Shown here: piece by piece, positions 3,654-24,000 of the stretch
Layout: each line of letters starts with the position of its first letter
Position numbering within the stretch: position 1 is the stretch's first letter
Source of the DNA: Vreelandella halophila
Lineage (GTDB): Bacteria; Pseudomonadota; Gammaproteobacteria; Pseudomonadales; Oleiphilaceae
Direction of reading: 5' to 3'
Length of the DNA: 24,000 nucleotides
Assembly (NCBI RefSeq): GCF_009856365.1
Contig: NZ_WMEX01000003.1
Coordinates: 251,735-275,734, forward strand
Position numbers and translations under genes: made by a program
Notes under the pieces: model-generated
What the model saw: the letters and a program-made list of their open reading frames with translations, nothing else
The model's database searches: none
Told to the model about the DNA's origin: nothing

Positions 3654-3664
3654 CACCCCTCCCA

Positions 3665-6326: not shown

Positions 6327-6354
6327 ACGATCAACCCAGAGAAGGGACAAGGAC

Positions 6355-7791: not shown

Positions 7792-7848
7792 TGCTCCCGT
7801 CGGGCAGGATCAGTACAGATCTCTGCCCGACAGGAACAGCCGCAACTA

Positions 7849-9063
7849 ATGACAAGACTCTCCGACCACTTCAGCGGCGTATCAGCAAAACGCCTCAGCA
7901 TTGTTGAAACCAGCCGCAGCGACTCCAACCAGCACGAGTTCAACGGCACGGCCGGGATGAGGCAATATCTCGGCAAAGAGCGATCAACTTTCCCCGCCCG
8001 CTTTATATACATCGGAAATGATGAAGAAGATCGCCTGATGGTTGATGACCATGTCACCTGGTACGACTCCAGAGAGCGTCATCCGAATCGTTCCGAGCAT
8101 CGTCTCTACTTCCGGGACAATGACGTAATGAACCTCGCCTCTGAAGGTGATGTCATGATTGCAGCACTCGACCGGGAAGGGAACATGCTGCTTGTTATCG
8201 TCAGTGATGTGAGCCAGTTGCTGGGAGACGTATTATGGCTTTTCGGTCTTGGTGAGCTTCCCGGCTCCGCTTTCATAACCATTGAGACAGCGGAAAGTTC
8301 TCATGCCTCAGATGCACTGTTCTACTACATTGCAGAACAGGCCGGGATTCAGATTGAGGAGAAAGTCAGCGATTCCTGGCTGGATCTGATTTTGGAAAGA
8401 TTCGGCCCCGTCTTTCCCAGAAGCCGCCAACTCTCCGCCTTGGCCCTTGAGTCGCTGGACGGAGAAATATCCCCGGTTGAGGAGCCCGACAACACACTTA
8501 TTCGGTTGCTGGACCGGGAAGAAAGGATGTTCCGGGAGCTTGAACGTCATATCGTTTCCAGTGAGCTCCGAAACAGGACTGAAACCTGGGCGGAGAACGT
8601 GGATGATTTCATTTCGTTTTCTCTGGGAGTACACAATCGCAGGAAATCCCGTGCAGGCCATTCACTGGAGAATCACCTTGAATGGATCTTCACGGAGAAC
8701 AGGCTTGAATTCCAGCGAGGCGTTCATACCGAAAATCGATCCAAGCCGGACTTTCTATTCCCTGGATCCGCACATTATCAGGACCCGAACTGGCCCGCAG
8801 ACCGTCTGACAATGCTGGGAGTAAAAACCTCATGCAAGGATCGCTGGCGCCAGGTTCTGAACGAAGCAGCCCGAATCCCCGAAAAGCATCTTCTCACCCT
8901 CCAGCCGGGAATATCCGAACACCAGACTCGAGAAATGGACGGAGCGAACCTTAGACTGGTGTTGCCGAGAAATCTCCACCGAACATACTCAACTTCTCAG
9001 CAAAGCTCTCTGATGGATCTGGATCTGTTCATCAATGAGGTTTTGAAGAAACAGGCGGCTTAA
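7849..9063 (+). CDS. Type II restriction endonuclease, EcoRII-C catalytic family, with a divergent EcoRII-N-like N-terminal region
   Basis: The C-terminal half matches my memory of the EcoRII catalytic domain (RRKSRAGHSLENHLE, KPDFLFP, KTSCKDRWRQVLNEA, LLTLQPGIS). The N-terminus has AKRLSIVETSRSDSNQHEFNG, reminiscent of the EcoRII-N KRLSANDTG..GHQ signature. At 404 aa it is the same size class as EcoRII. It lies directly downstream of the MTase. Confidence 0.8.
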   Translation: MTRLSDHFSGVSAKRLSIVETSRSDSNQHEFNGTAGMRQYLGKERSTFPARFIYIGNDEEDRLMVDDHVTWYDSRERHPNRSEHRLYFRDNDVMNLASEGDVMIAALDREGNMLLVIVSDVSQLLGDVLWLFGLGELPGSAFITIETAESSHASDALFYYIAEQAGIQIEEKVSDSWLDLILERFGPVFPRSRQLSALALESLDGEISPVEEPDNTLIRLLDREERMFRELERHIVSSELRNRTETWAENVDDFISFSLGVHNRRKSRAGHSLENHLEWIFTENRLEFQRGVHTENRSKPDFLFPGSAHYQDPNWPADRLTMLGVKTSCKDRWRQVLNEAARIPEKHLLTLQPGISEHQTREMDGANLRLVLPRNLHRTYSTSQQSSLMDLDLFINEVLKKQAA

Positions 9064-9093
9064 GGAGCAGCACCGACTCCGGGAGAAAAAAGC

Positions 9094-9579
9094 GTGGTGG
9101 ACATCAAGAACAGGGACCAGCGCTCACACAATATGTCTGCGATCCGCGGGAAGGACACTAAACCGGAAATGCTTGTCCGGCGGTATCTTCATTCCTGCGG
9201 CTACCGGTTCCGCCTTCACCGAAAAGATCTCCCAGGCAAACCGGATCTGGTCATGCCGAAGTATCAGCTCGTCATTTTCGTGCATGGCTGCTTCTGGCAC
9301 AGGCATGAGAACTGTCGATACTCAACAACCCCCTCCAACAGATCCGAGTTCTGGCAGGAGAAATTCGCGAAGAACGTTGAACGGGATTCCAGAAACAGGG
9401 AGGCGCTTCTTGAATCCGGATGGAGGGTGCTGATCATCTGGGAATGCGGGCTTAAACACGCTAAAGACGAACTGCCGGAGCTTTCCCGTCTTATTGAAAA
9501 TAACACTGGTTTTCAGGTCTGGCCTGCAACTCCCCCAAAGCCGAGAGCGCTTTCTAACGTTATTCAAAAACGTGGCTAG
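9094..9579 (+). CDS. vsr: Very short patch repair (T:G mismatch) endonuclease
   Basis: Similar to E. coli Vsr along its length: RSHNMSAIRGKDTKPE, LPGKPDLVMPKYQLVIFVHGCFWH, EFWQEKFAKNVERD and GWRVLIIWEC. GTG start at 9094. Confidence 0.9.
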   Translation: MVDIKNRDQRSHNMSAIRGKDTKPEMLVRRYLHSCGYRFRLHRKDLPGKPDLVMPKYQLVIFVHGCFWHRHENCRYSTTPSNRSEFWQEKFAKNVERDSRNREALLESGWRVLIIWECGLKHAKDELPELSRLIENNTGFQVWPATPPKPRALSNVIQKRG

Positions 9580-10513
9580 CATGCCATTCCAATGCCGTCT
9601 CGTGCGGCATAAACCTCTCATTTTCCGGACGTCGCACAAACTGCCCGGAAAGCTCTTTCAGCTCATTATTGACCGGCAACGCACTCGCTGCCTCGGAGAC
9701 CTGTATCTGCATCTCAGGTGTCACAGTAAAGAGACCGTTATCAAAAGCCCAGTGATGATTCGGGCACAAAGCCAATCCATTACGTGGATCATCAGTGCCT
9801 CCTGCCGCCACAGGAATAATGTGCGCCGCCTGGGCTGCTGCCGGTCCCTCGGGGACACTTAATCCCGAACCACAGACGCAGCAGCGATAGCCATATTCAC
9901 TTAGAACCAGTCTGGAGAATGCTGCTCTTCTGACAGGCTTGCGTGCATTACTATTACGATGGTTTCGATCTGCAAACCCGAGGAATTCTTCCTGTGTCTG
10001 CGCCCAGAGGGTTGATTCTTCGTTCTCAATTCCATTCGTGCTTAAGACTTGCTCGCCAAGCACCCCGGAACGTCTATTGTTAACGCGAGATTGCAACTCC
10101 GCGTATCCGGAATCGTTTCGCCGAATAAGCTGAAAGCAATAACGTTCTGGCTGGTCAAGATGTCTCCGTATAAGAAGGAAGTCACCCGCTACTGCCTCGT
10201 TTAGTAGAGGGCGCAAGTTGTCAGTAACACGTGTCTCCGGGTTACGGGTAGCTCCCCATGTCTGGTACTGATACCGTGAGTTTACTCGTTTCAGGAACAC
10301 AAGCCCCAGATAAAGGTCCGCCTGAATCCTCACGCCGGCAGTATTTTGTCCAAGTGGTAGTTCCGGAAAATATTGCCGAAGATCTGTAGGCAAAAGAAAT
10401 CCGGCTTGATGGCCTCTTGCTTGCCCCGTGTCATTACGAGGCAAACGCTTAAAGAGGGGGTTGTCCCAGTCATTGACATTTGGGAGCTCGTTAAGAATTT
10501 CAGATAATGACAT
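9560..10513 (-). CDS. EcoRII-N-like (B3-type pseudobarrel) DNA-binding domain fused to an HNH endonuclease domain
   Basis: N-terminal FKRLPRNDTGQARGHQAGFLLPTDL closely resembles the EcoRII effector-domain signature IKRLSANDTGATGGHQVGLYIP. The C-terminal part has CCVCGSGL....AAHIIPVAAGGTDDPRNGLALCPNHHWAFDNGLF, an HNH motif. The 3' end overlaps vsr convergently by 20 nt. Confidence 0.8.
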   Translation of the reverse strand: MSLSEILNELPNVNDWDNPLFKRLPRNDTGQARGHQAGFLLPTDLRQYFPELPLGQNTAGVRIQADLYLGLVFLKRVNSRYQYQTWGATRNPETRVTDNLRPLLNEAVAGDFLLIRRHLDQPERYCFQLIRRNDSGYAELQSRVNNRRSGVLGEQVLSTNGIENEESTLWAQTQEEFLGFADRNHRNSNARKPVRRAAFSRLVLSEYGYRCCVCGSGLSVPEGPAAAQAAHIIPVAAGGTDDPRNGLALCPNHHWAFDNGLFTVTPEMQIQVSEAASALPVNNELKELSGQFVRRPENERFMPHETALEWHASHVFE

Positions 10514-10673: not shown

Positions 10674-12032
10674 CTACTGCTCGGCAGCCCCATCCAAATC
10701 TTTACCGGGATCGTCATCCTCCTCCTTCTCAACCGGATCCCGCCGATTAATCCTAGGGGGCGGCGCCACCCAGGCCCGGAGCCTCTGCCCTACCTGTTCA
10801 TAGAATCGCGGCACCGCTGCTTCCAGTTCATCAATGAAGACCTTGTTCCCGGCGAAGCGTCCGGCCAGGTCGACCATGTAGAAGACTTCAAACTTCGAGG
10901 GCACGACGTTGGTGGTGTCGGAATCTAGGGCGTTGGCGTCGTTCATCAGTGTTTCCAGTGGCGCCTGGGTTTCCTCGGCGTTGCCAGTGCGGAAGGCTTT
11001 CACGAACATGTCATTGGTTTCGGCCTTGGTGAGCTGTCGTGTCAGCCAGTTGACCCGGGCCGATGTGCGTTTCTTGTCCTTGGGCGCGCTTAGCTTCATG
11101 GAGCAGGAAATGGTTCGCTTGGTGAGGTTGGCAACCACCTCGATGTCCGTGGCGGCGTGGGGCACGTCCAGCACGCAGCGCAGGACCTGTTCGTTCACCA
11201 GCGTCTCGCAGTCGTCCTTGAGCCGTGCCTGGGGGTCGGTGCGGTGCGCGCGTGAGAGCTTGAGGCCGACGTTCTGGCCCAGCTTGCGGCTCATAATCAG
11301 GCAGAGATCACGCTGTTCCTGGTGCCAGCAGGAGACGGTGTTGATCACATCCTCGGAGTTCTTGCCCAGCGATGCCCCACTCTTCACGTGCCCGACCACG
11401 TCCTTCCATTCCGGGTTCATGCGGTCGAAGTTGGAGACGCCGCTGGAGTCGTGGCTGAGGTACCGCTGGACTTCCTCCAGCACGAACTGCTGGTCCTCGG
11501 ATTCAACGCCGTCCTGTTCCAGCAGCAGGGTCGCCTGGGTGAGCGCGTACATCCAGGACCAGTGATAGAGTTCGACGCTCTTGAGGTATTTCTTAGGGAG
11601 CTTGATGGGGTGATGGGTGGGCAGCGCGACAAACTGGTTGGAGATGGTGATGACAGCGTCCAGCTTGTTCTCCTTGGCGATCTGCAGGTACTGCTTGAGC
11701 TGTTCCTCCCCCACCTCGGCGTTGCCGATCTTGGCTTCAATCAACGCCCGCCACTGCTTCTTGCCCGTGTCCAACACCAGCAACCCGTCCGGCCGCTCCT
11801 GCTTGGGCACCTTGGGATCAGACTGGAAGACCACCTCCGTCCACGCCTCCACCTTCGCCTTCTTCCCGACCCGTATGCCCAGGGAGTTGAGCATGATCTT
11901 CTGGAACTCATGCACACCCCGGAACGCGGCCAGCAGGATGGAGGCGGCGCGTTGCTCTTTGTTTGAGTCGGCGGTGACGGGGATGAGGCGGGCAATCTCG
12001 CCACGGGTAACGCAGTCCGGCAGGTCGATCAT
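10674..12032 (-). CDS. Hypothetical protein with a PD-(D/E)xK nuclease-like core (452 aa from ATG 12032)
   Basis: RPDGLLVLDTGKKQWRALIEAKIG fits a D...ExK restriction-endonuclease-fold motif, followed by ITISNQF. The rest is unassigned. The track ORF extends to 12200, but that extension reads through a 13-bp tandem repeat. ATG 12032 (M57, MIDLPDC) with an upstream AGGGA is preferred. The gene is GC-rich. Confidence 0.55.
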   Translation of the reverse strand: MIDLPDCVTRGEIARLIPVTADSNKEQRAASILLAAFRGVHEFQKIMLNSLGIRVGKKAKVEAWTEVVFQSDPKVPKQERPDGLLVLDTGKKQWRALIEAKIGNAEVGEEQLKQYLQIAKENKLDAVITISNQFVALPTHHPIKLPKKYLKSVELYHWSWMYALTQATLLLEQDGVESEDQQFVLEEVQRYLSHDSSGVSNFDRMNPEWKDVVGHVKSGASLGKNSEDVINTVSCWHQEQRDLCLIMSRKLGQNVGLKLSRAHRTDPQARLKDDCETLVNEQVLRCVLDVPHAATDIEVVANLTKRTISCSMKLSAPKDKKRTSARVNWLTRQLTKAETNDMFVKAFRTGNAEETQAPLETLMNDANALDSDTTNVVPSKFEVFYMVDLAGRFAGNKVFIDELEAAVPRFYEQVGQRLRAWVAPPPRINRRDPVEKEEDDDPGKDLDGAAEQ

Positions 12033-12094
12033 GGCTGCTTGTCCCTGGTTGGTGGTTCTCACGTCGCTGTGCAATGCAGCGGCTGAATACCCTG

Positions 12095-12165
12095 CCTTGC
12101 AAACCGGCCTTGCAAACCGGCCTTGCAAACCGGCCTTGCAAACCGGCCTTGCAAACCGGCCTTGA
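12095..12165. repeat. Perfect tandem repeat, 13-bp unit CCTTGCAAACCGG x5 plus a partial sixth unit (CCTTGA)
   Basis: Read directly: units at 12095-12107, 12108-12120, 12121-12133, 12134-12146 and 12147-12159. It lies in the divergent intergenic region between the PD-(D/E)xK gene (start 12032) and toxin 1 (start 12326). The paralogous locus at 17961-17976 carries only one degenerate unit (TTCTGAAACTGG-CCTTGA). Confidence 0.95.
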
Positions 12166-12325
12166 TTCAGCGTAGCAGACAACAGTGCAATGGGGATCAT
12201 AAAAGGCCATGGCGGTAGGGCCTTCGCTTGACACCGGAATCGACGGTTTGGAAGATACGCCTGTCGTCACGGAGACAGGGAAGACGACACCCAAGGACGA
12301 AACAGATTCAAGGAGCGAGCCCACC
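12158..12325 (+). repeat. Conserved non-coding leader upstream of toxin gene 1 (copy 1 of 2)
   Basis: 168 nt that align with 17971-18139 (169 nt) with only scattered substitutions and a 1-nt indel (GACACCCAAGG vs GACACCCCAAGG). The indel breaks any common reading frame, so the conservation is not protein-coding. The leader contains a GTCGTC-N14-GACGAC hairpin and an AAGGAG SD. Confidence 0.85.
12228..12256 (+). promoter_or_regulatory. Candidate sigma70-type promoter TTGACA-N17-GAAGAT inside the conserved leader
   Basis: A perfect -35 hexamer at 12228-12233 and a weak -10 at 12251-12256. The identical arrangement is present in copy 2 (18041-18069). No transcript data. Confidence 0.25.
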
Positions 12326-13342
12326 ATGCCCCACGTTGTAAGCGCCCCCTGCGGAATGAGCAGTCGCCGGCTGGCGGAACGCCACCTCCGGAGCAACGAC
12401 GACGAAACCACCCGGCAACTCCAGGAAAACCTCGAACGGAACAACTCTAGCAAGCTCAGTAATGGCACCACCAAGATGCCGGCGCTGATCGTAACGCCGG
12501 ATGGAACCCGGGTGAGCGAGCGAGAGGAAACCGAATGCGACCGCCTGAGCAAGGACCTGGATCGGCTCCAGAGGCGGCTTGGCCAGGAGAACTACCGCAA
12601 ACTTGTTGAGCTTACCAACACTGCCGGTCCGGAGGCGCTCAGCGTTGTTATGGCGGCCGAGCGGTGGGTTCAGAAGCATAAGGACTCACTGTCTATGGGC
12701 CTTGGCCTGACAGGTGGTGCGGTTTCCGGCGCAAAAAGCCGACTGGACGAGTTCGGCAAATCGCTGGCCCGTTACGAGGATGCCCTTAATACCTATCTGC
12801 TCAGTAAACATACACCAGCTGCCAAGCGTGCCAAGGCAAGAGAAGCGGCTCAGCGAGCCTTTAAGGATCTCAACAGTCGCTTTGCGGCGGAACTGGAAAC
12901 GATGGCTCAGAGTTCCCGCTACAAAAATTGGGTCCACAATCCTTTCCGGAGCTTCGCTGGTGGCGTTGAAGCTTCCTTCAATAGCAGTGGCAGCCCCATC
13001 AATTCCCTGCCCGAAACCAAAAGGCTCAACCTGGGTCTTAGTGCAACGCGGGTTCTGAGTAAAGGGACGTTTGCGCTTGACCTTGTGAGTCGTGGGACTC
13101 GGGTCATGTACAGTGACAACAAGGATTATCAGCTGGCCAAGGAAGCAACGAGCCTTGCGTTTTCTCTGGGCGGTGCCTCAATTGTAGCCCAGGGCGTAAC
13201 GCTCGGTTTAACCCTGGTGTTGGCTCCAACTGGGCTGACGCTAATCGTCAGCGTCGCAGCCGCATCCGCACTTTCTGCTGTCATTATCGATCTCCTTGTC
13301 CGAGATATTTTTGACGCGTCCGCTAACGCGTTAACCGACTGA
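12326..13342 (+). CDS. Putative membrane-active (colicin-like pore-forming?) polymorphic toxin, copy 1 (338 aa)
   Basis: ATG 12326 is preceded by AAGGAG at 10-nt spacing. This start is shared with the paralogue, whereas the upstream in-frame extension from 12209 is not. The central region is helical and charged. It ends in a ~55-aa hydrophobic Gly/Ala/Leu-rich stretch (LGGASIVAQGVTLGLTLVLAPTGLTLIVSVAAASALSAVIIDLLV) plus a short amphipathic tail (RDIFDASANALTD). A small membrane protein gene follows immediately. Confidence 0.55.
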   Translation: MPHVVSAPCGMSSRRLAERHLRSNDDETTRQLQENLERNNSSKLSNGTTKMPALIVTPDGTRVSEREETECDRLSKDLDRLQRRLGQENYRKLVELTNTAGPEALSVVMAAERWVQKHKDSLSMGLGLTGGAVSGAKSRLDEFGKSLARYEDALNTYLLSKHTPAAKRAKAREAAQRAFKDLNSRFAAELETMAQSSRYKNWVHNPFRSFAGGVEASFNSSGSPINSLPETKRLNLGLSATRVLSKGTFALDLVSRGTRVMYSDNKDYQLAKEATSLAFSLGGASIVAQGVTLGLTLVLAPTGLTLIVSVAAASALSAVIIDLLVRDIFDASANALTD

Positions 13343-13351
13343 GAGGGTTTC

Positions 13352-13777
13352 GTGATATTCATAGCCAATCCGTGCGACAGCGTCATTCTGGGTTATCTGA
13401 TTCCGATTGTGATGTTCCCGGTTATCCCACTCATGATATTGGCGTATCCCATTTTAGGCCGACATTTTGACGAGAAAGTACACAACCGGGAATCTCCGGA
13501 TTTCTGGATTGGGCCAATAGGGACTTTCATCGCGCGACCGGTGGGCTATGCGTTCTATATCGTCGTTAACGTTGATTGGGACAAGCTCGAAGCACGTGCG
13601 AGACGGCGTAACCCTGACCACAACCCTGTAGCCCTGCTTACCAGAACCTATGGCCACATTGATTTTCGCGGCGAGGCTAACACCCTGCAGATCGGGCTGA
13701 GCTGGCTTTACGTGCTATCGCTTTCCTTAACGGTGCTACTCGCTTTCATTCATGCTTTCTGCAAATACGTACTATGA
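13352..13777 (+). CDS. Putative cognate immunity protein 1, 141-aa integral membrane protein (about 3 TM segments)
   Basis: GTG start 9 nt after the toxin stop, with a GAGAGGG SD. Hydrophobic segments at the N-terminus, middle and C-terminus. Conserved YPxLGRHFD and DWxK motifs are shared with two paralogues (14565, 19166). Confidence 0.6.
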   Translation: MIFIANPCDSVILGYLIPIVMFPVIPLMILAYPILGRHFDEKVHNRESPDFWIGPIGTFIARPVGYAFYIVVNVDWDKLEARARRRNPDHNPVALLTRTYGHIDFRGEANTLQIGLSWLYVLSLSLTVLLAFIHAFCKYVL

Positions 13778-14295
13778 AATGGCTATCCTCAATCGCCGGT
13801 CTACTGATTGTTGGCCTTCTCGGCTATTCCGGCCTGAGCTTCTACGTTCTGCAGGCAAGCAGCCCAGATACCAACGCGTCCTGCGCTATCGGTGACAGCG
13901 GGACTCATATCCCTCAATTCGCCTGCCGTTGGTATCTTGAGCATCAACTGACTAGTAAAAGAGAAAGCGGCGATGCCCAGAGTGTGCTTCACTTGGCAAT
14001 CGGCGCTTACCCAACAGATCCCGAGCAAGCTCAGGAGATTATGGAGCTGGCCCTTTCTGAAGGCGCACAGATCAACGATTTCTCGCCGGTGACCGGTTAT
14101 CCCCCATTGCATGAGGCGGTCCTGCTCAACGAGCCGCGGCTTGCTGAATTCCTCCTCCAGAGAGGAGCCGATCCGGAGATAGAGGATCAAAACAAGGAGG
14201 TGACGGCGCGTGAACTGCTGTCGGCTATTGAGGAGCGGAATCCGGAAAAGGATCTGTCAAGGATGGTGACACTGTTACAAGAGGAACGAGAATAG
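13774..14295 (+). CDS. Ankyrin-repeat protein with N-terminal signal-anchor/TM segment
   Basis: ATGA start/stop overlap with immunity gene 1. N-terminal hydrophobic IAGLLIVGLLGYSGLSFYVL. ANK-like repeats are present (TGYPPLHEAVLLNEPRLAEFLLQRGADPEIED). Confidence 0.7.
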   Translation: MKWLSSIAGLLIVGLLGYSGLSFYVLQASSPDTNASCAIGDSGTHIPQFACRWYLEHQLTSKRESGDAQSVLHLAIGAYPTDPEQAQEIMELALSEGAQINDFSPVTGYPPLHEAVLLNEPRLAEFLLQRGADPEIEDQNKEVTARELLSAIEERNPEKDLSRMVTLLQEERE

Positions 14296-14402
14296 GAAAG
14301 CGGCAGGAACGGGAACATACGGCTGTCAATTCACTCGAGGCAGGTCAGCTCAAGCTGATCGAAGGCTTATGGCCAGAGCCGCTGCGGACAACTTTTTTCA
14401 GG

Positions 14403-14552
14403 GAACCTGTTTTTGTCTTTGCTCTTGTAGGCGGTCCAGGAGGGCTTGTTCTTCTAATCAGCACGGCTGCAGTTGGCAGGTTGGCCGCTTACGGCGGGGA
14501 CTCCTTTGGACGCCTGCTGTTTGATACCGCTGCAGAACCACTGGTCGACTGA
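14403..14552 (+). pseudogene. Orphan 3' fragment of a third toxin allele (C-terminal ~49 codons, no start codon)
   Basis: The frame ending at TGA 14550-14552 translates to EPVFVFALVGGPGGLVLLISTAAVGRLAAYGGDSFGRLLFDTAAEPLVD. This aligns with the toxin 3 C-terminus AAFGLTLVLGPSGLVLLITLTSIGALTAYNTDLIARDLFDDTAEALLK. Similarity is lost upstream of ~14400. An immunity paralogue follows 12 nt later. Confidence 0.6.
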
Positions 14553-14564
14553 AAGGTCATTGTT

Positions 14565-14990
14565 ATGGATGCCAGTTCGTTGTGTGAAAGCACCTTTGTT
14601 GGGATCCTGGTTCTCATAGTCGGGCTCCCTCTTCTTCCTTGTGTGCTGCTCGGCTATCCACTGCTTGGCCGACATTTCGACCCGTTGATCCGCGAAAGGG
14701 CCTTCCCTGATTTCTGGCTAGGACTCCTCGGGACGCTCATCATGCGACCGATTGGGTACGCCCTACTCGTTGTAGTGAATCCCGACTGGGAAAAGATCAG
14801 GGCCAAGAACAGCCATCGGGATAACAAAGGGGTTGATCTGGTCGCGATGTACCTCCGGACCTATGGCGGTATCGACTACCGCAATGAATCCAGTTGGCTG
14901 CAGTTCGGATTCAGCCTGATTTATGTGTCGTCGTTACTCCTGATAGTGCCGCTGGGCCTACTGCTTGCTCCATGCAGTTGGTCTGGATAA
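14565..14990 (+). CDS. Putative immunity protein 2 (141-aa membrane paralogue, paired with the orphan toxin fragment)
   Basis: Same length and same motifs (YPLLGRHFDP, RPIGYAL, NPDWEK, RTYGGIDY) as the proteins at 13352 and 19166. Confidence 0.6.
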   Translation: MDASSLCESTFVGILVLIVGLPLLPCVLLGYPLLGRHFDPLIRERAFPDFWLGLLGTLIMRPIGYALLVVVNPDWEKIRAKNSHRDNKGVDLVAMYLRTYGGIDYRNESSWLQFGFSLIYVSSLLLIVPLGLLLAPCSWSG

Positions 14991-14998
14991 AAAAAAGC

Positions 14999-15466
14999 AT
15001 GACTTCGGTCTTTTGCCTGACATTGACCTGTTCAGGCTGTGTAACAGCAGAACCCATGCCGGCGAAAGCCCGGTATATGGCTTTTGAGGAGGCCCTTAGC
15101 GATACAGACGATAACCGCACCTACGGCAAGTACCTCTCGAACCGACTTATGTCCTTTCATAAAAAGGCTGCGTCGAAGGAAGAGCAGGATTCCTACCGAA
15201 AACCGGGCGCTTTCCCGTTGTGGCTAACGGAAGAAACCGCATTCCACGAACGCAGCCGTGCTGAAGGGCAATGCGTGACGGTTTCAGGTAAGACATATGA
15301 TGGCAAACCGGGCTATGTAGCCATTCGCTATATCAAGGAGCACGGCTCCTTGAAGGCAGATGACATTCACTATGAATACCTGGAAACGCGCCAGGATTTC
15401 CCTTCGGAAGCCATATGCCCGGATGAGATAACGCTGTCATTTCCCAGCGACGAAGATGGGCAATGA
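14999..15466 (+). CDS. Putative secreted protein or lipoprotein, function unknown (155 aa from ATG 14999)
   Basis: The track ORF starts at 14894 inside the immunity gene. ATG 14999 gives a signal-peptide-like MTSVFCLTLTCSGCVTA. No family recognised. Confidence 0.4.
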   Translation: MTSVFCLTLTCSGCVTAEPMPAKARYMAFEEALSDTDDNRTYGKYLSNRLMSFHKKAASKEEQDSYRKPGAFPLWLTEETAFHERSRAEGQCVTVSGKTYDGKPGYVAIRYIKEHGSLKADDIHYEYLETRQDFPSEAICPDEITLSFPSDEDGQ

Positions 15467-15827
15467 ACAGCACCAAAGGACCTGGAATCTCGGTCCACAA
15501 ATGGTTTTCCCTCTCGCGGGTACACTGGTTGTTGGTTTCCTCGGCTATACCGGGCTGGGGCTGGGGTTGCGGAGCCTGCACACTGCGGACATAGAGGATG
15601 TATCACTCTGCGTGACCGAGGACAATACCCACGAGGCCAAACAACGGTTAAGAATTCAATCTGGAAATGCTGCCCTGTGTCACCCCCCTTACTACAACAC
15701 TATTCGAGCCACTCAATGCTCCCATCCAGCGCAACGAGTAAGAGTGAGAGTGTTGTCCTGGACTTGGCAAGGTCTGGGAGGCGATGCCACAAACCGCGGT
15801 ACTGTTTCAGATCTGGCAGGGCGATAG
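15456..15827 (+). pseudogene. Probable 3'-truncated paralogue of the ankyrin/TM gene (similarity only over the first ~60 codons)
   Basis: LAGTLVVGFLGYTGLGLGLRSLHTADIEDVSLCVTEDNTH aligns with IAGLLIVGLLGYSGLSFYVLQASSPDTNASCAIGDSGTH of the 13774 product. Similarity stops near nt ~15636. The rest of the ORF runs antisense into the convergent gene 15700-16320 and has no ANK repeats. Confidence 0.35.
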
Positions 15828-16320
15828 AATATGAAGCATTAGGATCATCCATCCGTTGAAGCGTCTCTCCAAGGATCCCGAGAAAATAGTTAACCCTCAT
15901 TGGCGATCTCGACCCCGGTCCTTTCACTTCAATGATCCAGCGCTCGGAACCACGATTGGCCTCGATATCGATACCCTGCACGCTGCCCCAGGCCACTTGA
16001 GTGCTCCAGCGGGCACGCTGAAGCCATTGATCCAGTACTTCCTTGATCTCATCTTCGGATAGCGCCTCCAGGTCATGGTTCTTCTGCTGGCTTCTGCCAG
16101 TAGGCGCCTCATGACGTTCAGCATTGCCTTTATAATTCCCAATCAGGCCATCTGCGCGCCTTTGCCTGACGACAACTCCTTTGGACTCCAATCCCCGCGC
16201 AGTCTGATTAACAGGTTGTTGAGGAGCACTGGCGCCTCGTAGCTGACTGGTAATCTCACGATCAGTCATCCCGGGTGATTTGGAGATGAGCTGAAGAATT
16301 TGGTCGGTCAGACTCCCCAT
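15700..16320 (-). CDS. Winged-HTH (MarR-like) N-terminal domain fused to a PD-(D/E)xK restriction-endonuclease-like domain
   Basis: N-terminal LTDQILQLISKSPGMTDREITSQL....ARGLESKGVVVRQRR is wHTH-like. C-terminal GIDIEANRGSERWIIEVKG fits D...ExK. A TAGGAGG SD lies 8 nt upstream of ATG 16320. Last gene of a three-gene minus-strand cassette. Confidence 0.6.
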   Translation of the reverse strand: MGSLTDQILQLISKSPGMTDREITSQLRGASAPQQPVNQTARGLESKGVVVRQRRADGLIGNYKGNAERHEAPTGRSQQKNHDLEALSEDEIKEVLDQWLQRARWSTQVAWGSVQGIDIEANRGSERWIIEVKGPGSRSPMRVNYFLGILGETLQRMDDPNASYSIALPDLKQYRGLWHRLPDLAKSRTTLSLLLVALDGSIEWLE

Positions 16321-16365
16321 TGGAAGACCTCCTAAGCTTCCGTTCCTATAAGCAGGACAGACACG

Positions 16366-17211
16366 CTATTTCACCAGTGACTCTATCCAGGAGAAAGCTT
16401 CCGGGTAATCACTCGTATCAAGCACAAACTCCTGTCCACGCGGAACACACTGGAGCCGGCACTGCTCCCCGTCCAACTGCCAGCGGCTCAGATCGTCATG
16501 CTGGCTCAATGGCCGTTTCCCTTCGGAAGGATAGAAAAAGCCTGGGAGTTGCCACACGCTGACCTTTTTGCTGCCCGGCACGGTAAGCCGTAGCTCATCG
16601 TTCATACTCTGGAACACGCCTGCACCCTGAATCCTCATGGGCCCTCGCCCCAGATCCAAGCTCTCGCGCGCAATATATAGCGTATTAGAGGGTTTTGCCT
16701 CACGGTGAAAGTGTGGGTGATCCTGCACCCACGGCAACCTTTCTCCCAATGCTCCATCAACCGGACTGACCTCTTCAACCTGAAGCCATCCCCAGAGGGC
16801 ATGGAATGGAGCCGATTGCCTGTCAAAGCGCCATCGCCCATCGACACGCTCAACGCGACGGAAAAGACCAAAGAACAGGAACAGGTCACCCTCCGAGACG
16901 CCTTGATTTCGCAGATGCCCCTGAGCCTGATCAATCTGCCCCAGGGTGGGACGCCAACCAGGTTTTCGGGAAGTCAGTTCAGGTGCCAGGTCCGGATCCA
17001 GGTGAGCCCTGTGATCCCTCCGTTTAGGATTCCCGGTCAGGTCGGCAACCAGTTCACCGACGTTGATGCCTTCATACTGCAGATCGCTGTAACGTACCGA
17101 AGATTGTTTATCCGGTATGGGTAGCGACAGGAAACTGCCATCCGGAAATACAGGGCTCGGGCAACCGCCTGCACTGGAATCGAAACCTTTACGGCTCAGT
17201 ATCAGCTTCAT
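16366..17211 (-). CDS. Nmad3-like protein (nucleotide-modification-associated domain 3; assignment from memory, unverified)
   Basis: The N-terminus MKLILSRKGFDSSAGGCPSPVFPDGSFLSLPIP matches my recollection of proteins annotated as Nmad3 family. Its ATG (17209-17211) overlaps the TGA of the upstream gene (ATGA coupling). Confidence 0.5.
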   Translation of the reverse strand: MKLILSRKGFDSSAGGCPSPVFPDGSFLSLPIPDKQSSVRYSDLQYEGINVGELVADLTGNPKRRDHRAHLDPDLAPELTSRKPGWRPTLGQIDQAQGHLRNQGVSEGDLFLFFGLFRRVERVDGRWRFDRQSAPFHALWGWLQVEEVSPVDGALGERLPWVQDHPHFHREAKPSNTLYIARESLDLGRGPMRIQGAGVFQSMNDELRLTVPGSKKVSVWQLPGFFYPSEGKRPLSQHDDLSRWQLDGEQCRLQCVPRGQEFVLDTSDYPEAFSWIESLVK

Positions 17212-17873
17212 CAGCAGCTTCCGCAGGACTGTATCTGGGACGTACTTTCTTCATCTTTCCAGTAATGCGGCAATCCGTGACAACCTGGCTTGAACTCAGA
17301 GCGGACGTAGTCAATAAATTCCCTAGCTCGCGCCCGCTCCGTCCCCCATCCATGGGCCGCCTGCCCTTTCGGCACCTTAGGTCGGATTTCAGGAGGAAGG
17401 TACATCGGGTCCCTTCCAAAATAATAGAATTCGTCTGCTATCAGCACATACCGGCCGCCGATATCCGTCTCGCGGTGACCCAAATCAGGCCCGGATTCTG
17501 TCCAATGATTAGGATTTATCAATTGCTCAAAATGCGCTGGCTCGTGAGCCCATTCGCTCAGGGGCCGATAAATATTATCTCCGGTTTTGGGATAGGGCCC
17601 TTTAGTCTTCATGTTGGGGATTTTGTCCTGAAACCGCGGGTCCCAGAAGTAATCGCGAATCAGTGTCTTCTCCCCTACCCGCATCAGGTACACCAGTCTT
17701 TCATCACCAACCGGGTCTCCGTTCAGTTCCCCTGATGTAAACCCCGCAATCCAGTCACCGACACGTTTACATCGGCGAATTTCAGGCTTACAGGTGGCAA
17801 GCGTAAGCGTGTGGCCAAAAGGGTTGGGTGCGAAGCCTGAGTCATGGGTTATTTTGTACGAGAAGAGTCTCAT
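17211..17873 (-). CDS. Nmad2-like protein (nucleotide-modification-associated domain 2; assignment from memory, unverified)
   Basis: The N-terminus MRLFSYKITHDSGFAPNPFGHTLTLATCKPEIRRC matches my recollection of Nmad2-family proteins. An AAGGGAG SD lies 4 nt upstream of ATG 17873. Confidence 0.5.
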   Translation of the reverse strand: MRLFSYKITHDSGFAPNPFGHTLTLATCKPEIRRCKRVGDWIAGFTSGELNGDPVGDERLVYLMRVGEKTLIRDYFWDPRFQDKIPNMKTKGPYPKTGDNIYRPLSEWAHEPAHFEQLINPNHWTESGPDLGHRETDIGGRYVLIADEFYYFGRDPMYLPPEIRPKVPKGQAAHGWGTERARAREFIDYVRSEFKPGCHGLPHYWKDEESTSQIQSCGSC

Positions 17874-17970
17874 TAAGCTCCCTTGAGGGCCTCGGCTTGC
17901 GCCACGTGCCTTCGCTCAGGCCATGGCAGAAATTCCAAACCTTGGAGTGGAGTTGACCCGTTCTGAAACT

Positions 17971-18139
17971 GGCCTTGATCCAGCGTAGCAGAGAACAACG
18001 CAATGGGGATCATAGAAGGCCATGGCTGTAGGGCCTTCGCTTGACACCGGAATCATCGGTTTGGAAGATACGCTCGTCGTCACGGACACAGGGAAGACGA
18101 CACCCCAAGGACGAAACAGATTCAAGGAGCGAGCCCACC
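17971..18139 (+). repeat. Conserved non-coding leader upstream of toxin gene 3 (copy 2 of 2)
   Basis: Aligns with 12158-12325 (see that entry). Contains the same TTGACA-N17-GAAGAT (18041-18069), hairpin and SD. Confidence 0.85.
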
Positions 18140-19156
18140 ATGCCCCACGTTGTAAGCGCCCCCTGCGGAATGAGCAGTCGCCGGCTGGCGGAACGCCACC
18201 TCCGGAGCAACGACGACGAGACCACCCGGCAACTCCAGGGAAACCTCGAACGGAATAACTCAAGTAAGCTCAGTAATGGCACCACCAAGATGCCGGCGCT
18301 GATCGTGACGCCGGATGGAACCCGGGTGAGCGAGCAGGAGGAAACCGAATGCGATCGCTTGAGCAAAGACCTGGATCGGCTCCAGAGGCGGCTTGGCCAG
18401 GAGAACTACCGCAAGCTGGCTGAGCTTACCAATACCACCGGGCCAGAGGCGCTCAGCGTTGTTATGGCGGCCGAGCGGTGGGTTCAGAAGCATAAGGACT
18501 CACTGTCTATGGGCCTGGGACTGACAGGTGGTGCGGTTTCCGGTGCAAAAAGCCGACTGGATGACTTCGGCAAATCCCTGGCCCAGTACGAGGATGCCCT
18601 TAACACCTACCTGCTCAGTAAGCATTCCCCGGCTGCACAGCGTGCTAAAGCAAGAGAGGCAGCTCAGCGAGCTTTTAAGGATCTCAACGGGCGCTTTGCG
18701 GCGGAACTGGAGACAATGGCCCAGAATTCCCGCTACAAAAGTTGGGTGCACAATCCTTTCCGGAGTTTCGCTGGCGGGGTTGAGGCCTCCTTCAATACCA
18801 GTGGTAGCCCTATAAGTTCCCTGCCCGAGACACAGAGGCTTAATATCGGCCTGGGGGCAACGCGGGTACTGGGCAAAGGGGCTTTTGGACTTGATCTTGT
18901 AGCTAGAGGCTATCGGGTCGCGTATAGCGACAACAAGGACTATACCCTCGCCAAAGAAGCAGCAACCTTTGCAGTTTCCGGGCTTGTCACTTCTATCGTC
19001 GTTCGAGGAGCTGCGTTTGGGCTTACCTTGGTTCTGGGGCCGAGCGGGCTTGTACTACTGATCACTTTAACCAGCATTGGCGCACTTACAGCCTACAACA
19101 CTGATCTGATAGCCCGTGATTTGTTCGACGATACGGCTGAAGCCCTCCTGAAATAG
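18140..19156 (+). CDS. Putative membrane-active polymorphic toxin, copy 2 in full length (338 aa)
   Basis: Starts MPHVVSAPCGMSS exactly as in 12326. It is near-identical to copy 1 for ~270 aa, then diverges through the hydrophobic C-terminus (VSGLVTSIVVRGAAFGLTLVLGPSGLVLLITLTSIGALTAYNTDLIARDLFDDTAEALLK). The track start 18041 is the TTG of the TTGACA box and lies in a frame not shared with copy 1. Confidence 0.55.
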   Translation: MPHVVSAPCGMSSRRLAERHLRSNDDETTRQLQGNLERNNSSKLSNGTTKMPALIVTPDGTRVSEQEETECDRLSKDLDRLQRRLGQENYRKLAELTNTTGPEALSVVMAAERWVQKHKDSLSMGLGLTGGAVSGAKSRLDDFGKSLAQYEDALNTYLLSKHSPAAQRAKAREAAQRAFKDLNGRFAAELETMAQNSRYKSWVHNPFRSFAGGVEASFNTSGSPISSLPETQRLNIGLGATRVLGKGAFGLDLVARGYRVAYSDNKDYTLAKEAATFAVSGLVTSIVVRGAAFGLTLVLGPSGLVLLITLTSIGALTAYNTDLIARDLFDDTAEALLK

Positions 19157-19165
19157 GATAGCTCT

Positions 19166-19591
19166 ATGATTTTTGCCTCGAATCCCTGTGACAGCCTGAT
19201 TCTGGGATATCTGATTCCGATTGCCATGCTGCCACTGATCCCGATGATGGCTCTGGCTTACCCGCTACTCGGTCGCCATTTTGACCCGATGATCCAGCAT
19301 CGCGAGTCGATTGATTTCTACATGGGGCCATTGGGGACATATCTCATACGTCCTGGTGGATATGCTCTTTTCATCGTCATGAACATGGACTGGAAAAAGC
19401 TTGAGGAACGTGCCACACGCCGTAATCCGGACGTAAACCCTATGGGTCCCACAATTCGGACCTACGGGAGTATTGATTTCAAAAGCGAGGCGAACGCCTT
19501 TCAGATCGGATTCAGCTGGCTTTATATCCTGCTGGTAGCGCTCACCGTAGTGCTCGGCTTCATTTATACGTTCTGCAAGCACTTTCTTTGA
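19166..19591 (+). CDS. Putative cognate immunity protein 3 (141-aa membrane paralogue)
   Basis: ATG 9 nt after the toxin stop. Same length and motifs as 13352 and 14565 (YPLLGRHFDP, RPGGYALFIV, MDWKKLEE, RTYGSIDF). Confidence 0.6.
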   Translation: MIFASNPCDSLILGYLIPIAMLPLIPMMALAYPLLGRHFDPMIQHRESIDFYMGPLGTYLIRPGGYALFIVMNMDWKKLEERATRRNPDVNPMGPTIRTYGSIDFKSEANAFQIGFSWLYILLVALTVVLGFIYTFCKHFL

Positions 19592-19593
19592 GC

Positions 19594-19695
19594 GGAGCAG
19601 TGGTTCTCCATAAATTCATGAAGAAGGATCAGAAAATACCTGCTAAGGACATAAAGCTCGCGCGAGAGCGCATGAAGGAGGTGAAAAAACGATGA
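19594..19695 (+). pseudogene. 3' remnant of a HigB/Gp49-like (RelE-superfamily) toxin gene
   Basis: Translation GAVVLHKFMKKDQKIPAKDIKLARERMKEVKKR* matches the characteristic C-terminus of Gp49-like toxins (hGFxKKTQKTPxxEIxxAxxRxKE). Its TGA overlaps the ATG of the downstream HTH gene (ATGA). The upstream frame runs straight into immunity gene 3, so the N-terminal ~70 codons are missing. Confidence 0.55.
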
Positions 19696-21034: not shown

Positions 21035-21098
21035 ACCTGAGAGGCTCCTATTCGCCTCTCAAATCCACGCCAGCATTTCTGCTATAATGCTTTAAAGA
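21035..21098 (+). repeat. ~64-bp intergenic element, copy A
   Basis: ACCTGAGAGGCTCCTATTCGCCTCTCAAATCCACGCCAGCATTTCTGCTATAATGCTTTAAAGA aligns in the same orientation with 22425-22488, with roughly four-fifths of positions identical by eye. It contains a GAGAGG...CCTCTC stem-loop. Confidence 0.7.
21080..21088 (+). promoter_or_regulatory. Extended -10 element TGCTATAAT, about 35 nt upstream of the small ORF at 21124
   Basis: Consensus TGnTATAAT read directly. It lies inside repeat copy A. The homologous position in copy B is degenerate (TATTAGGGT). Confidence 0.3.
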
Positions 21099-22424: not shown

Positions 22425-22488
22425 ACCTGAGAGTCCCCCATCCGCCTCTCAAATCCGCGCCACCATTTCTATTAGGGTGCTTTAAAGG
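22425..22488 (+). repeat. ~64-bp intergenic element, copy B
   Basis: ACCTGAGAGTCCCCCATCCGCCTCTCAAATCCGCGCCACCATTTCTATTAGGGTGCTTTAAAGG. See copy A at 21035-21098. Confidence 0.7.
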
Positions 22489-22513: not shown

Positions 22514-23410
22514 CTAATCCTTTGATTTCAGCTCATCGAGCAACTGATCCTTGCGCTCCCAAAGTGCTTCCTGCCACTGCTTGACCTGTTGGCGGTGGTT
22601 TTCATCCTCGTTGTAATTGCCGCCCAGCAGATGCTGTGGAATGGGCACCTGCTCAACACGGATGACGATATGGGTGACCCGCCCGCACATGAATTCCCAG
22701 AGCCCGGGGCGGCCGTTGGGGTAGGCAATGGTAATGTCGAGCAGAGTGGAGAGGGTGTCGCCCATGGCTTCCAGAACGAAGGCGGTGCCGCCGGCTTTGG
22801 GGCGCAGCAGATGCTTGTAGGGGGATTTCTGGCTGTCGTGTTTCTCGGGGGTGAAGCGGGTACCTTCCGGGAAGTTCATCACGCTGACCGGGGTATAGCG
22901 GAATTTCTCACAGGCGCGGCGGGTGGCCTCCATGTCCTCGCCGCGTTTCTCCGGGTGTTTCTGCAGATACTCCCGGGAATAGCGCTTCATGAACGGAAAG
23001 TCGAGTGCCCACCAGGCCAGCCCGATCACCGGCACCCAGATCAGCTCCTGTTTGAGGAAGAACTTCAGGAACGGAATGCGCCGGTTGAAGATGTGCTGCA
23101 GGGCGAAAATATCCACCCAGCTCTGATGGTTGCTCATCACCAGGTACCAGCCCTCGCGGCTGAGCCCTTCCACCCCGGAGACATCCCAGGTGGTGCGGTG
23201 GGTGAGGCGCATCCAGCCACTGTTGCAGGCCACCCAGCACTGCGAGATCCCGATGATCAGGCGCGTGCAGAACACCCGCCAGGCACGGATCGGGATGATC
23301 AGCTTCAGTATGCCCGGGATATAGAGCAGCACACACCAGAAGACGGTGTTCACCGCGAGCAGCAGGGAGTTCAGTACGCCGAGTAAGGGTTTGGGGAGAA
23401 AGTTGAGCAT
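22514..23410 (-). CDS. Membrane acyltransferase of the PlsC/YihG (lysophospholipid acyltransferase) family
   Basis: HX4D motif SNHQSWVDI. Downstream FPEGTR motif. N-terminal TM segments. 298 aa. Confidence 0.8.
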   Translation of the reverse strand: MLNFLPKPLLGVLNSLLLAVNTVFWCVLLYIPGILKLIIPIRAWRVFCTRLIIGISQCWVACNSGWMRLTHRTTWDVSGVEGLSREGWYLVMSNHQSWVDIFALQHIFNRRIPFLKFFLKQELIWVPVIGLAWWALDFPFMKRYSREYLQKHPEKRGEDMEATRRACEKFRYTPVSVMNFPEGTRFTPEKHDSQKSPYKHLLRPKAGGTAFVLEAMGDTLSTLLDITIAYPNGRPGLWEFMCGRVTHIVIRVEQVPIPQHLLGGNYNEDENHRQQVKQWQEALWERKDQLLDELKSKD

Positions 23411-23467
23411 AGAGCAAGCCGGCCATCGAATGATTCATCGCCATTGTTCGATGAGTTGGGCCAGGGA

Positions 23468-23935
23468 TCAATGGGGAGCAGCCAGGTTGTTGGCCTTGAT
23501 CACGCTGCGGATGAGCCGGATGTAGCCTTCACCCTTGGCGGAGTATTTCTCAAGACCCGCTGCAAGATCGCTCCCCTCCGGGGCCTGGCCTTTGTTGCGC
23601 GCCTGAGCCCGCCGTTCCCTCAACGGTTCGTAGACCGGATGGCTGTTCAGGTGGTGGATGTAGTCATTGACGGCTTCCACAATGGGCGCGAGGTAATCGA
23701 AGAAAGCCTCCTTGCGCTCGGGCCCGGCGGGGATGTCCAGAAAGGCCGGCATCGATTGGGCTCCGGCGCCCTCGTCAATCCGGGGTGGAATGGCAACCTG
23801 TTCGGATTCAGGTGTCGTGGCTTCTGTCGTGGCTTCCTCGCTCTCCTCCACGCCGTTGTCACAGGCGGAGAGAGCGATGACAACACCGACCATGAACGCG
23901 GCCGACAGGTATTGGCGCCTTTTGTGACTCAACAT
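23468..23935 (-). CDS. Putative lipoprotein, function unknown
   Basis: The internal ATG 23935 gives MLSHKRRQYLSAAFMVGVVIALSAC with a lipobox LSAC. The track start at 23998 adds 21 non-signal residues. ERKEAFFDYLAPIVEAVNDYI faintly recalls the N-terminal region of Bax/FlgJ-like proteins, but no glucosaminidase core is present. Confidence 0.5.
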   Translation of the reverse strand: MLSHKRRQYLSAAFMVGVVIALSACDNGVEESEEATTEATTPESEQVAIPPRIDEGAGAQSMPAFLDIPAGPERKEAFFDYLAPIVEAVNDYIHHLNSHPVYEPLRERRAQARNKGQAPEGSDLAAGLEKYSAKGEGYIRLIRSVIKANNLAAPH

Positions 23936-24000
23936 GTATGCTCCCGGATCAATGGTATGTTCATCGGCCTCACCCCCAGGGCGGTTCGACACCCTCAACA

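Follow-up and report, generated by a model that had tools for sequence, protein, structure and literature searches.

What does a gene pair do that occurs twice, with near-identical beginnings and clearly different ends, in a variable island of Vreelandella halophila? The pair lies in a 24,000-nucleotide (nt) stretch of contig NZ_WMEX01000003.1 (here called the window, to which the coordinates refer unless another locus is named) and consists of a gene for a 338-amino-acid (aa) protein followed by a gene for a 141-aa membrane protein. We call these genes toxA and immA in copy A and toxB and immB in copy B, after their proposed roles as toxin and immunity genes. An initial annotation of the DNA had proposed polymorphic, membrane-depolarizing toxins with cognate membrane immunity proteins. 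We followed up this proposal by computation, and the outcome speaks for it: the locus is likely to be an array of cassettes, each made up of a colicin-type pore-forming toxin and a membrane-bound immunity protein.

Two collinear copies with a diverged 3′ part

Copy A (12153-13777) and copy B (17966-19591) are collinear direct repeats, each with a leader, the 338-aa open reading frame (ORF), and the 141-aa membrane ORF. The repeat finder paired 12153-12292 with 17966-18105 (91% identity) and 12290-12589 with 18104-18403 (96%), and a MAFFT alignment of 12100-13800 with 17913-19615 was collinear over ~1620 nt, with a mean identity of 88%. In 60-nt windows, the nucleotide identity of the two copies is 87 to 100% from 12156 to ~12994, falls to 50 to 73% in 12995-13354, which holds the last ~110 toxin codons, and ranges from 58 to 77% across the downstream 141-aa gene. 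The proteins behave alike, with 95% identity in residues 1-225, 76% in residues 226-270, and 47% in residues 271-338 of the toxin and 64% in the 141-aa protein. In codons 1-225, 41 of the differing codons are synonymous and 12 nonsynonymous; the corresponding counts are 20 and 36 for codons 271-338 and 42 and 52 for the immunity gene. Because the differences are synonymous-heavy in the 5′ part and nonsynonymous-heavy in the 3′ part, the 5′ part of the toxin gene appears to be under purifying selection or homogenized, and the tip and the immunity gene appear to form an older, exchanged module.

Between the copies lies a third 141-aa paralogue, immM, preceded by an orphan 3′ fragment of a toxin gene. 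Homology of this fragment to a complete cassette on the metagenome contig L002 begins abruptly at ~14379-14390, with a 1-nt indel at the junction; the stretch 14379-14980 is 95.3% identical to that contig at the nucleotide level, and the last 45 aa of the fragment are 93% identical to the L002 toxin. The repeat anatomy had been described in the initial annotation, and each of its elements was recovered here: the collinear repeats by the repeat finder, MAFFT, and the ORF list, the contrast between the near-identical 5′ part and the diverged tail and membrane protein by the nucleotide and amino acid identities, and the orphan cassette by its translation and by the boundary of the L002 homology.

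Two longer ORFs, 12209-13342 (377 aa) and 18041-19156 (371 aa), were not taken for the true genes, because a 1-nt indel in the leader puts their N-terminal extensions into different frames. Since this indel breaks the longer frames and AAGGAG is conserved in eight loci, the start codons were fixed at the ATGs at 12326 and 18140.

Relatives and exchange of cassettes

A word-indexed search of 5.8 billion proteins returned nine relatives of the 338-aa protein, all of them 338 aa long and 59 to 95% identical, from Vreelandella, Salicola, and saline metagenomes, as well as nine relatives of the 141-aa protein, one of which is labeled "uncultured Halovibrio"; no close relative of either protein has a protein name or a Pfam domain. 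In an exhaustive profile search of 1.84 billion 50%-identity cluster representatives, the family widened to 93 proteins at an E value of ≤0.001 (12 at 1e-10), almost all 310 to 355 aa long and matching profile positions ~85 to 330. Those that come from named organisms (Alkalimonas, Arsukibacterium/Rheinheimera, Agarivorans, and Ectothiorhodospiraceae) are all annotated as "hypothetical." Metagenomes of the Joint Genome Institute (JGI) contributed 160 confirmed matches, and a search of plasmids gave none; the context of the toxin is chromosomal.

Eight loci with complete toxin-immunity pairs were compared pairwise. The identity of the last 68 toxin residues goes along with that of the immunity protein (r = 0.79), whereas the identity of residues 1-225 does not correlate with that of the immunity protein (r = 0.29) or of the toxin C-terminus (r = 0.13); the pairs are non-independent, and the r values are descriptive only. 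Furthermore, all three cassettes of the window were found again elsewhere. The tip of toxA and immA are the cassette of locus L006 (100% and 96% identity), and the tip of toxB and immB are that of the second copy in Salicola (L004; 100% and 99%, with 95.9% DNA identity over 1746 nt), a copy that is truncated at its 5′ end and has lost the promoter and the first ~28 codons. The orphan tip and immM correspond to the complete pair in L002 (93% and 94%). In other genomes, shared cassettes of C-terminus and immunity gene stand behind different N-termini. At the level of sequence, then, the locus has the whole make-up of a polymorphic-toxin system: a conserved N-terminal part, a variable tip, a co-varying downstream gene for a putative immunity protein, and orphan or truncated cassettes. 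The initial annotation had recognized this signature in the two copies, and the covariation and the sharing of cassettes between genomes confirm it. Peculiar among polymorphic toxin systems is that what is exchanged here is part of a single domain.

The three 141-aa paralogues have clear hydrophobic segments at residues ~6-38 and ~109-141; a third segment at ~50-72 passes the hydropathy threshold in immM only. The gap between toxin and immunity gene is 10 to 13 nt in all eight close loci. A small ORF at this place is also a feature of the distant relatives, since all 30 complete distant metagenome loci have an ORF of 123 to 142 aa directly after the toxin homologue, and three annotated genomes of the wider family have ORFs of 111 to 122 aa, sometimes in runs of two to four. 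Examples are L015 (11058-12191 of that locus), where a distant toxin relative is followed by small paralogous ORFs of 111, 114, and 112 aa, and L026 (10867-12101 of that locus), where two tandem homologues of the 141-aa family follow the toxin relative. According to the hidden Markov model (HMM) of the immunity family, the small ORFs of the wider family are not detectably related to the 141-aa family; the exceptions are two tandem copies that follow P0021, the nearest outgroup. The wider family as a whole thus appears to accumulate immunity genes.

A C-terminal domain related to colicin channels

Hydropathy marks residues ~277-331 of the 338-aa protein as a hydrophobic hairpin. The initial annotation had likened this region to the pore-forming domain of colicins, and the analogy turned out to reflect a detectable remote homology. 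Among the best PDB matches of the profile of 98 family sequences were pore-forming bacteriocins, with E values of 0.01 for colicin Ib, 0.075 for colicin A, 0.15 for colicin B, and 0.71 for pyocin S5; each match is individually sub-significant, and all of them cover the C-terminal ~110 residues including the hairpin. When the family profile was aligned by hhalign with six channel domains taken from plasmid records (colicins Ib, Ia, E1, K, and S4 and a Hafnia homologue), the probability was 96.6% and the E value 6.6e-10. The controls, in which the same profile was aligned with colicin immunity proteins and with the 141-aa family, gave 2% and 0.2%, and because both membrane-protein controls stayed this low, the colicin match is not an artefact of hydrophobicity. 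When the close halophile family is used by itself, its residues 144-325 line up with channel positions 62-195 (E = 3.9e-4, probability 35%, effective number of sequences [Neff] 1.7). This alignment takes in the GKxIxxxxDAL block, with FGKSLARYEDALNTY against GKKIRNVDDALAAFEKY, and leaves ~35 extra residues within the domain. Furthermore, the family consensus gNW.Relf.Es.gFaaS...TPvGW parallels the colicin TGNWRPLFVKLE..AAG..AS...G.P.G, and one distant member bears the UniRef label "Channel forming colicins domain-containing protein." Judged by these profiles, the C-terminal ~190 residues of the 338-aa protein are most likely a highly diverged, colicin-type channel-forming domain. The searches did not place the protein in a non-toxin structural family, an outcome that the initial annotation had listed as incompatible with its proposal.

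A putative LysM-like domain at the N-terminus

In the AlphaFold model, residues 1-100 have a predicted local distance difference test (pLDDT) score of ~90, and residues 1-60 fold into a beta-alpha-alpha-beta arrangement (strand 3-7, helices 13-20 and 26-39, and strand 53-57). The best full-length PDB matches of the N-terminal profile are LysM proteins, namely Kbp/YgaU (0.007 to 0.02), phage P2 tail protein X (0.18), and YkuD (0.7). Many distant members have the LysM pattern GD[ST]L together with a conserved Asn, e.g., MSGIYLCQNGDSLSDL...N...GQAIILP; in the halophile subfamily, the GDTL motif is lost. Pfam LysM (PF01476) matched 1 of the 98 family members (E = 6e-4). We assign residues 1-60 to a LysM-like domain with moderate confidence. 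Binding of peptidoglycan is the classical role of a LysM fold.

Leader and possible regulation

All eight aligned upstream regions share an invariant TTGACA, a weak −10 box, a 7-bp inverted repeat, and AAGGAG. The inverted repeat, GYCGTC-N14-GACGRC, lies just downstream of TTGACA and is present in both copies of the window and in L001, L002, L004, L006, L008, and L009. One of its stem pairs covaries, being C-G in four loci and U-A in three (a compensatory change). An Rfam scan of the leader matched no family, and a simple promoter scan did not call the toxin promoter because its −10 box is weak. The conservation of the inverted repeat suggests a repressor operator or a stem-loop in the 5′ untranslated region that would control toxin expression.

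Upstream of copy A, the intergenic region contains a perfect 13-nt tandem repeat (Table 1); the other loci have one or two of these units only (eight upstream regions aligned). A 508-aa reading of the ORF 10674-12200 on the minus strand was rejected, as its first 56 residues are the translated tandem repeat (QGRFARPVCKAGL repeats).

The island and its other genes

The locus is part of a variable island between a gene for a fusion of MeaB and methylmalonyl-CoA mutase (24-2714) and an acyltransferase/bax-like pair (22514-23998). Vreelandella utahensis (L001) has a toxin pair at the same chromosomal hot spot, and in L002 the left border recurs, accompanied by different defence genes. To the right of copy B, the flanking DNA shares synteny and 93 to 96% identity with Salicola sp. 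(L004). A scan for tRNA genes found none. Genes of defence type make up the remainder of the island. Left of the toxin locus is a dense defence cluster (2766-10513), which opens with a 299-aa unknown ORF. Defence genes at other loci of the close family include HEPN, GmrSD, an SLFN-like helicase, SIR2 with DUF87, Lamassu LmuB, and Dnd.

TABLE 1 Coordinates of the toxin locus and of other features in the window
Feature	Position	Strand	Remarks
Leader of copy A	12153..12325	+	TTGACA −35 box at 12229-12234, weak −10, inverted repeat ~12262-12289, AAGGAG 8 nt before ATG
toxA	12326..13342	+	338 aa from MPHVVS; LysM-like ~1-60, helical middle, putative divergent colicin-type channel domain ~144-325, hairpin ~277-331
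immA	13352..13777	+	141-aa hydrophobic protein, presumed cognate immunity; start 10 nt past toxA stop
Orphan toxin 3′ fragment	14390..14552	+	Last ~50 codons (hairpin and tail) of P0007-type toxin; without start codon or N-terminal part
immM	14565..14990	+	Third 141-aa paralogue, intact putative immunity gene of orphan cassette
Leader of copy B	17966..18139	+	Promoter, inverted repeat (~18076-18103), and Shine-Dalgarno as in copy A
toxB	18140..19156	+	338 aa; C-terminus identical to that of truncated Salicola copy
immB	19166..19591	+	141 aa; 64% identical to immA
AAA_15/DUF3696 ATPase	3665-4777		Overlaps GmrSD_N protein
GmrSD_N protein	4764-5963		Overlaps AAA_15/DUF3696 ATPase
Dcm methylase	6355-7791
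EcoRII-C endonuclease	7849-9063
Vsr	9094-9579
HNH protein	9560-10513		Weak EcoRII-N match
~452-aa gene	10674..12032	-	True start MIDLPDC...; divergent from toxA; weak VRR-NUC hint (E = 0.088)
Perfect 13-nt tandem repeat GCCTTGCAAACCG x5.5	12094..12164	.	TRF; divergent intergenic region between ~452-aa gene and toxA
173-aa ankyrin protein	13774..14295	+	N-terminal hydrophobic anchor and Pfam Ank/Ank_2; start overlaps immA stop
206-aa protein	15700-16320	-	No significant family match
Nmad3	16366-17211	-	E = 5e-85
Nmad2	17211-17873	-	E = 4e-48

The ~452-aa gene, whose product has no PDB relative, stands beside the toxin gene, whole or truncated, in five of the eight close loci. Its conservation there is 84 to 93% in Salicola, in L006, and, as truncated copies, in Vreelandella and L009; further fragments turn up at other places in these islands. 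The gene may be tied to the toxin module, or it may be an island gene in the course of decay. Copies of the 173-aa ankyrin protein occupy varying positions in related islands (91% identity in L001 and 74% in L004), and partial ORFs lie at the corresponding place after the immunity gene in L006 and L007; its link to the toxin system is uncertain. Downstream of the orphan cassette are a 190-aa ORF (14894-15466) and a 123-aa ORF (15456-15827), the latter with a hydrophobic N-terminus that resembles that of the ankyrin protein, of which it is possibly a remnant. One possible role for the ankyrin, 190-aa, and 123-aa ORFs is as orphan immunity genes against other toxins. The block between the toxin copies, with its nucleotide-modification-associated pair Nmad2/Nmad3, may be a defence or modification system in its own right that was inserted into the array. 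A 63-nt direct repeat (21035-21097 and 22425-22487, 83% identity) flanks the region immediately to the left of the acyltransferase gene and may be an element like the repetitive extragenic palindromes (REP) or like a small RNA at the island border.

Discussion

Several results weigh against the view that the locus encodes pore-forming toxins and their immunity proteins. Pfam Colicin (PF01024) did not match toxA at an E value of ≤0.1 and matched 1 of the 98 family members at 0.022, short of the gathering threshold. The PROSITE-type channel-colicin signature T-x2-W-x-P-[LIVMFY]3-x2-E (after PS00276) occurs in none of the 98 family members and in five of the six colicin domains. From these two failures we place the 338-aa protein in a remote branch of the channel-domain superfamily and do not regard it as a colicin. 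Scans of the 338-aa and 141-aa proteins with Pfam, NCBIfam, and PADLOC yielded nothing usable. The AlphaFold model had a pLDDT of 45.8 with 11 close sequences and, with 98 sequences, was confident at residues 1-100 and 140-220 only; it consists mostly of long helices, and the hairpin stayed below 50. A Foldseek search of the model against the PDB gave no significant match, the best being generic helical bundles. Because of the low-confidence hairpin and the blank Foldseek search, the fold of the channel part is read from the sequence profiles, where the comparison with colicin pore domains proposed at the outset did give a match. A relationship of the 141-aa family to colicin immunity proteins, considered as a candidate, was rejected (hhalign, 0.4%). 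No genes for a type VI secretion system (T6SS), other secretion systems, lysis, or receptor binding were seen near the toxin gene in ~13 contexts with precomputed Pfam lists, nor was a T6SS family among the 25 most frequent families of 137 neighbours at 32 metagenome loci, where families with one or two proteins were unlisted. To these points are added the non-independence of the locus pairs behind the r values and the frequent neighbourhood of phage-defence genes, to which we return below.

How the toxin would leave the cell is not evident from the locus, as the initial annotation had already stated. The toxin lacks a signal peptide, and the window contains neither secretion genes nor genes for lysis or receptor binding. 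The toxin has no MIX, FIX, RIX, or other marker domain detectable by Pfam and NCBIfam, the Pfam lists of the ~13 contexts show no vgrG, hcp, PAAR, or adaptor (DUF4123, DUF1795, DUF2169) gene, and none of ten upstream same-strand ORFs (335 to 1062 aa) is a VgrG. Because ~45 loci are without linked secretion genes, gene neighbourhood gives a T6SS no support. The wider search for relatives, attached C-termini, and neighbours, which the initial annotation had proposed, brought up the shared cassettes and again no secretion genes nearby. Its statement that there is no recognizable secretion marker holds for the surroundings of the gene but less so for the protein, since residues 1-60 appear to be LysM-like and this domain is reported at the N-terminus of some membrane-targeting T6SS effectors. 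TseVF, a membrane-targeting T6SS effector, has a LysM domain at residues 2-49 (PMC12861213), and LysM is among the N-terminal domains of BTH_I2691-family architectures (PMC13133200). Furthermore, a T6SS is present in some Halomonas species (literature), and two small effectors, both toxic from the periplasm only, offer precedents: the 311-aa Tme1 (PMC7046647, PMC13133200) and the orphan, ion-selective pore-former Ssp4 of Serratia marcescens, a 332-aa protein with an N-terminal domain of ~113 residues, a helical pore domain, and a four-helix membrane immunity protein encoded downstream, usually far from T6SS genes (PMC12669606). By analogy with these effectors, a T6SS encoded elsewhere in the genome is our leading guess for export; if the toxin model is right, we give this route about an even chance. 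The LysM-like domain is probably a handling or delivery module.

The hairpin of pore-forming colicins is a determinant of immunity specificity. With these colicins, and with pyocin S5, the 338-aa protein shares the GKxIxxxxDAL block, the NW-R-x-LF-x-E block, the hydrophobic hairpin, and the last helix; as in the colicins, a gene for a small polytopic membrane immunity protein adjoins the toxin gene, and the hairpin is the most variable region and co-varies with the immunity gene. However, the present toxin is chromosomal, is only 338 aa long, and is without receptor-binding and translocation domains, a lysis gene, and an SOS-regulated plasmid operon. The immunity gene lies on the same strand, 10 nt downstream, whereas it lies on the opposite strand in the colicin plasmids compared, and the immunity protein is unrelated in sequence.

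In size and layout, compared by description, the 338-aa protein resembles Ssp4/Sip4: 332 versus 338 aa, an N-terminal part of ~110 residues followed by a helical domain for membrane insertion, many helices and one small beta-sheet in the AlphaFold model, and a gene for a small integral-membrane immunity protein directly downstream, with Ssp4 usually encoded at a distance from T6SS genes, in islets of two or three genes. The Ssp4 family includes a "marine bacteria" clade (PMC12669606). However, our relatives A0A1H4ENT9, A0A285JL40, and R9PQL2 are absent from the homologue list in Dataset EV2, which contains another Alkalimonas amylolytica protein instead. With the membership cut-off of the Ssp4 authors (hmmsearch score of >100), this absence argues against membership in the Ssp4 family at their threshold and is compatible with remote homology. 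The authors reported no structural or sequence relative of Ssp4 and no colicin relationship (PMC12669606).

Tme1/Tmi1 of Vibrio parahaemolyticus, again compared by description, is likewise a small effector whose C-terminal membrane-active domain has a predicted transmembrane helix; it dissipates the membrane potential from the periplasm and has diverse downstream immunity proteins with several transmembrane helices (PMC7046647). Tme proteins have a DxxK motif followed by a single predicted transmembrane helix, whereas the motif of the present family is D-x3-R and its two-helix hairpin ends in TPxGW, and ~70% of the Tme genes have a T6SS-related gene directly upstream, of which none was seen for the present family. 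A colicin-like transmembrane region has been reported for VasX and Tke5 (PMC13133200), and NCBIfam BTH_I2691 weakly matched 2 of 54 members of our wider family (E ~0.005). However, VasX, Tke5, and TseVF are 1000 to 1200 aa long, have MIX or adaptor-binding regions, and are encoded beside vgrG and DUF4123 genes; the present proteins are one third that size and stand alone. The genetic organization is that of CdiA-CT and Rhs-CT systems (PMC3482391), with a conserved and recombinogenic N-terminal part, a variable tip, a downstream cognate immunity gene, and displaced orphan tips with immunity genes. In contrast to these, the variable module here is the last ~70 to 110 residues of one channel domain instead of an unrelated toxin domain, and the CdiB, Rhs, PAAR, VgrG, and LXG parts are missing.

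From these observations we infer toxicity, a site of action, and a mechanism of immunity. In our model, the soluble 338-aa toxin, which has no signal peptide, would reach the periplasmic face of the inner membrane of a target cell, possibly by a T6SS encoded elsewhere, as with other small orphan pore-forming effectors, although this export step is conjecture. There, the Gly/Ala/Leu-rich helical hairpin (~277-331) would insert and form an ion-conducting channel, and the membrane potential would collapse. The 141-aa inner-membrane protein would block its own toxin by helix-helix recognition of the hairpin within the membrane, as colicin immunity proteins do; such recognition would explain why hairpin and immunity gene diverge and move together. 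The array may grow by recombination in the conserved 5′ two-thirds of the toxin gene. An incoming cassette of C-terminus and immunity gene could replace the resident tip, leaving behind an orphan tip and its immunity gene as at 14390-14990, or it could be kept as a second full copy such as toxB/immB, so that the cell would accumulate immunities.

The same toxin and immunity protein could also be those of a diffusible or vesicle-borne bacteriocin that is released by lysis, by outer-membrane vesicles, or by another exporter and that uses the LysM-like domain for uptake or cell wall binding. The killing domain is indeed colicin-like, T6SS genes adjoin none of the ~45 loci, and the LysM fold classically binds peptidoglycan (discussed in PMC12861213). 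Even so, we regard this as quite unlikely: 338 aa are too short for receptor-binding and translocation domains of the colicin type, a lysis gene is missing, the immunity gene shares the strand of the toxin gene and is probably co-transcribed with it, unlike in the operons of the pore-forming colicins compared, and the tested proteins of like size and organization are T6SS substrates (PMC12669606, PMC7046647).

The surroundings of the locus point to a different possibility, an anti-phage abortive-infection module in which a cytoplasmic pore-former, restrained by or working with the 141-aa protein, kills its own cell upon infection. Many loci of the close family lie among phage-defence genes in a variable island, the toxin has no signal peptide, and secretion genes are not nearby. 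However, no PADLOC model matches either protein, and the neighbours of the distant clade are mostly housekeeping rather than defence genes. The opening of colicin-type channels from the periplasmic (trans-negative) side counts against a role in the cytoplasm; Ssp4, too, was not toxic when kept in the cytoplasm (PMC12669606). An orphan tip with an intact immunity gene, 5′-truncated copies, and tandem arrays of small genes are hallmarks of interbacterial toxins and have no obvious use in self-killing, and the covariation of hairpin and immunity gene and the exchange of cassettes imply specificity between strains. A literature search turned up no colicin-like defence effector, and altogether we hold abortive infection to be very unlikely.

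That the pair is a tail-anchored helical membrane protein and its partner, housekeeping or structural genes copied by ordinary segmental duplication, would agree with the missing Pfam, NCBIfam, and PADLOC annotation and with a model of mostly long helices whose best, non-significant Foldseek matches are generic bundles, but the specific colicin match with clean controls, the patchy distribution, the very rare close family, the location in a variable island, and cassette exchange and orphan fragments unexpected for housekeeping genes make it extremely improbable.

An array of pore-forming toxins and immunity proteins would give a concrete candidate function to a protein family otherwise named only "hypothetical" and would mean that the colicin channel domain also occurs in small proteins encoded on the chromosomes of halophilic and marine gammaproteobacteria. 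Near-identical N-termini with different cassettes of hairpin and immunity gene, three specificities in the window, would be a natural experiment on how a hairpin is recognized. The question of export is sharpened as well, given a conserved LysM-like N-terminal domain and no linked secretion genes in ~45 loci: if export depends on a T6SS, the LysM-like domain is a candidate effector marker, and if not, a new delivery route is implied. A bolder and, in our estimate, unlikely extension is that the present proteins are the founding example of a widespread and so far unannotated class of miniature "colicins," made up of a LysM-like domain and a diverged channel domain, each paired with a small membrane immunity protein, and delivered neither by colicin-type import nor by a gene-linked T6SS. 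If this were true, the LysM-like domain might load the toxin onto a contractile or tail-like device (cf. phage P2 tail protein X) or allow its capture at the peptidoglycan, and specificity would be reprogrammed by swapping the hairpin and the immunity gene together.

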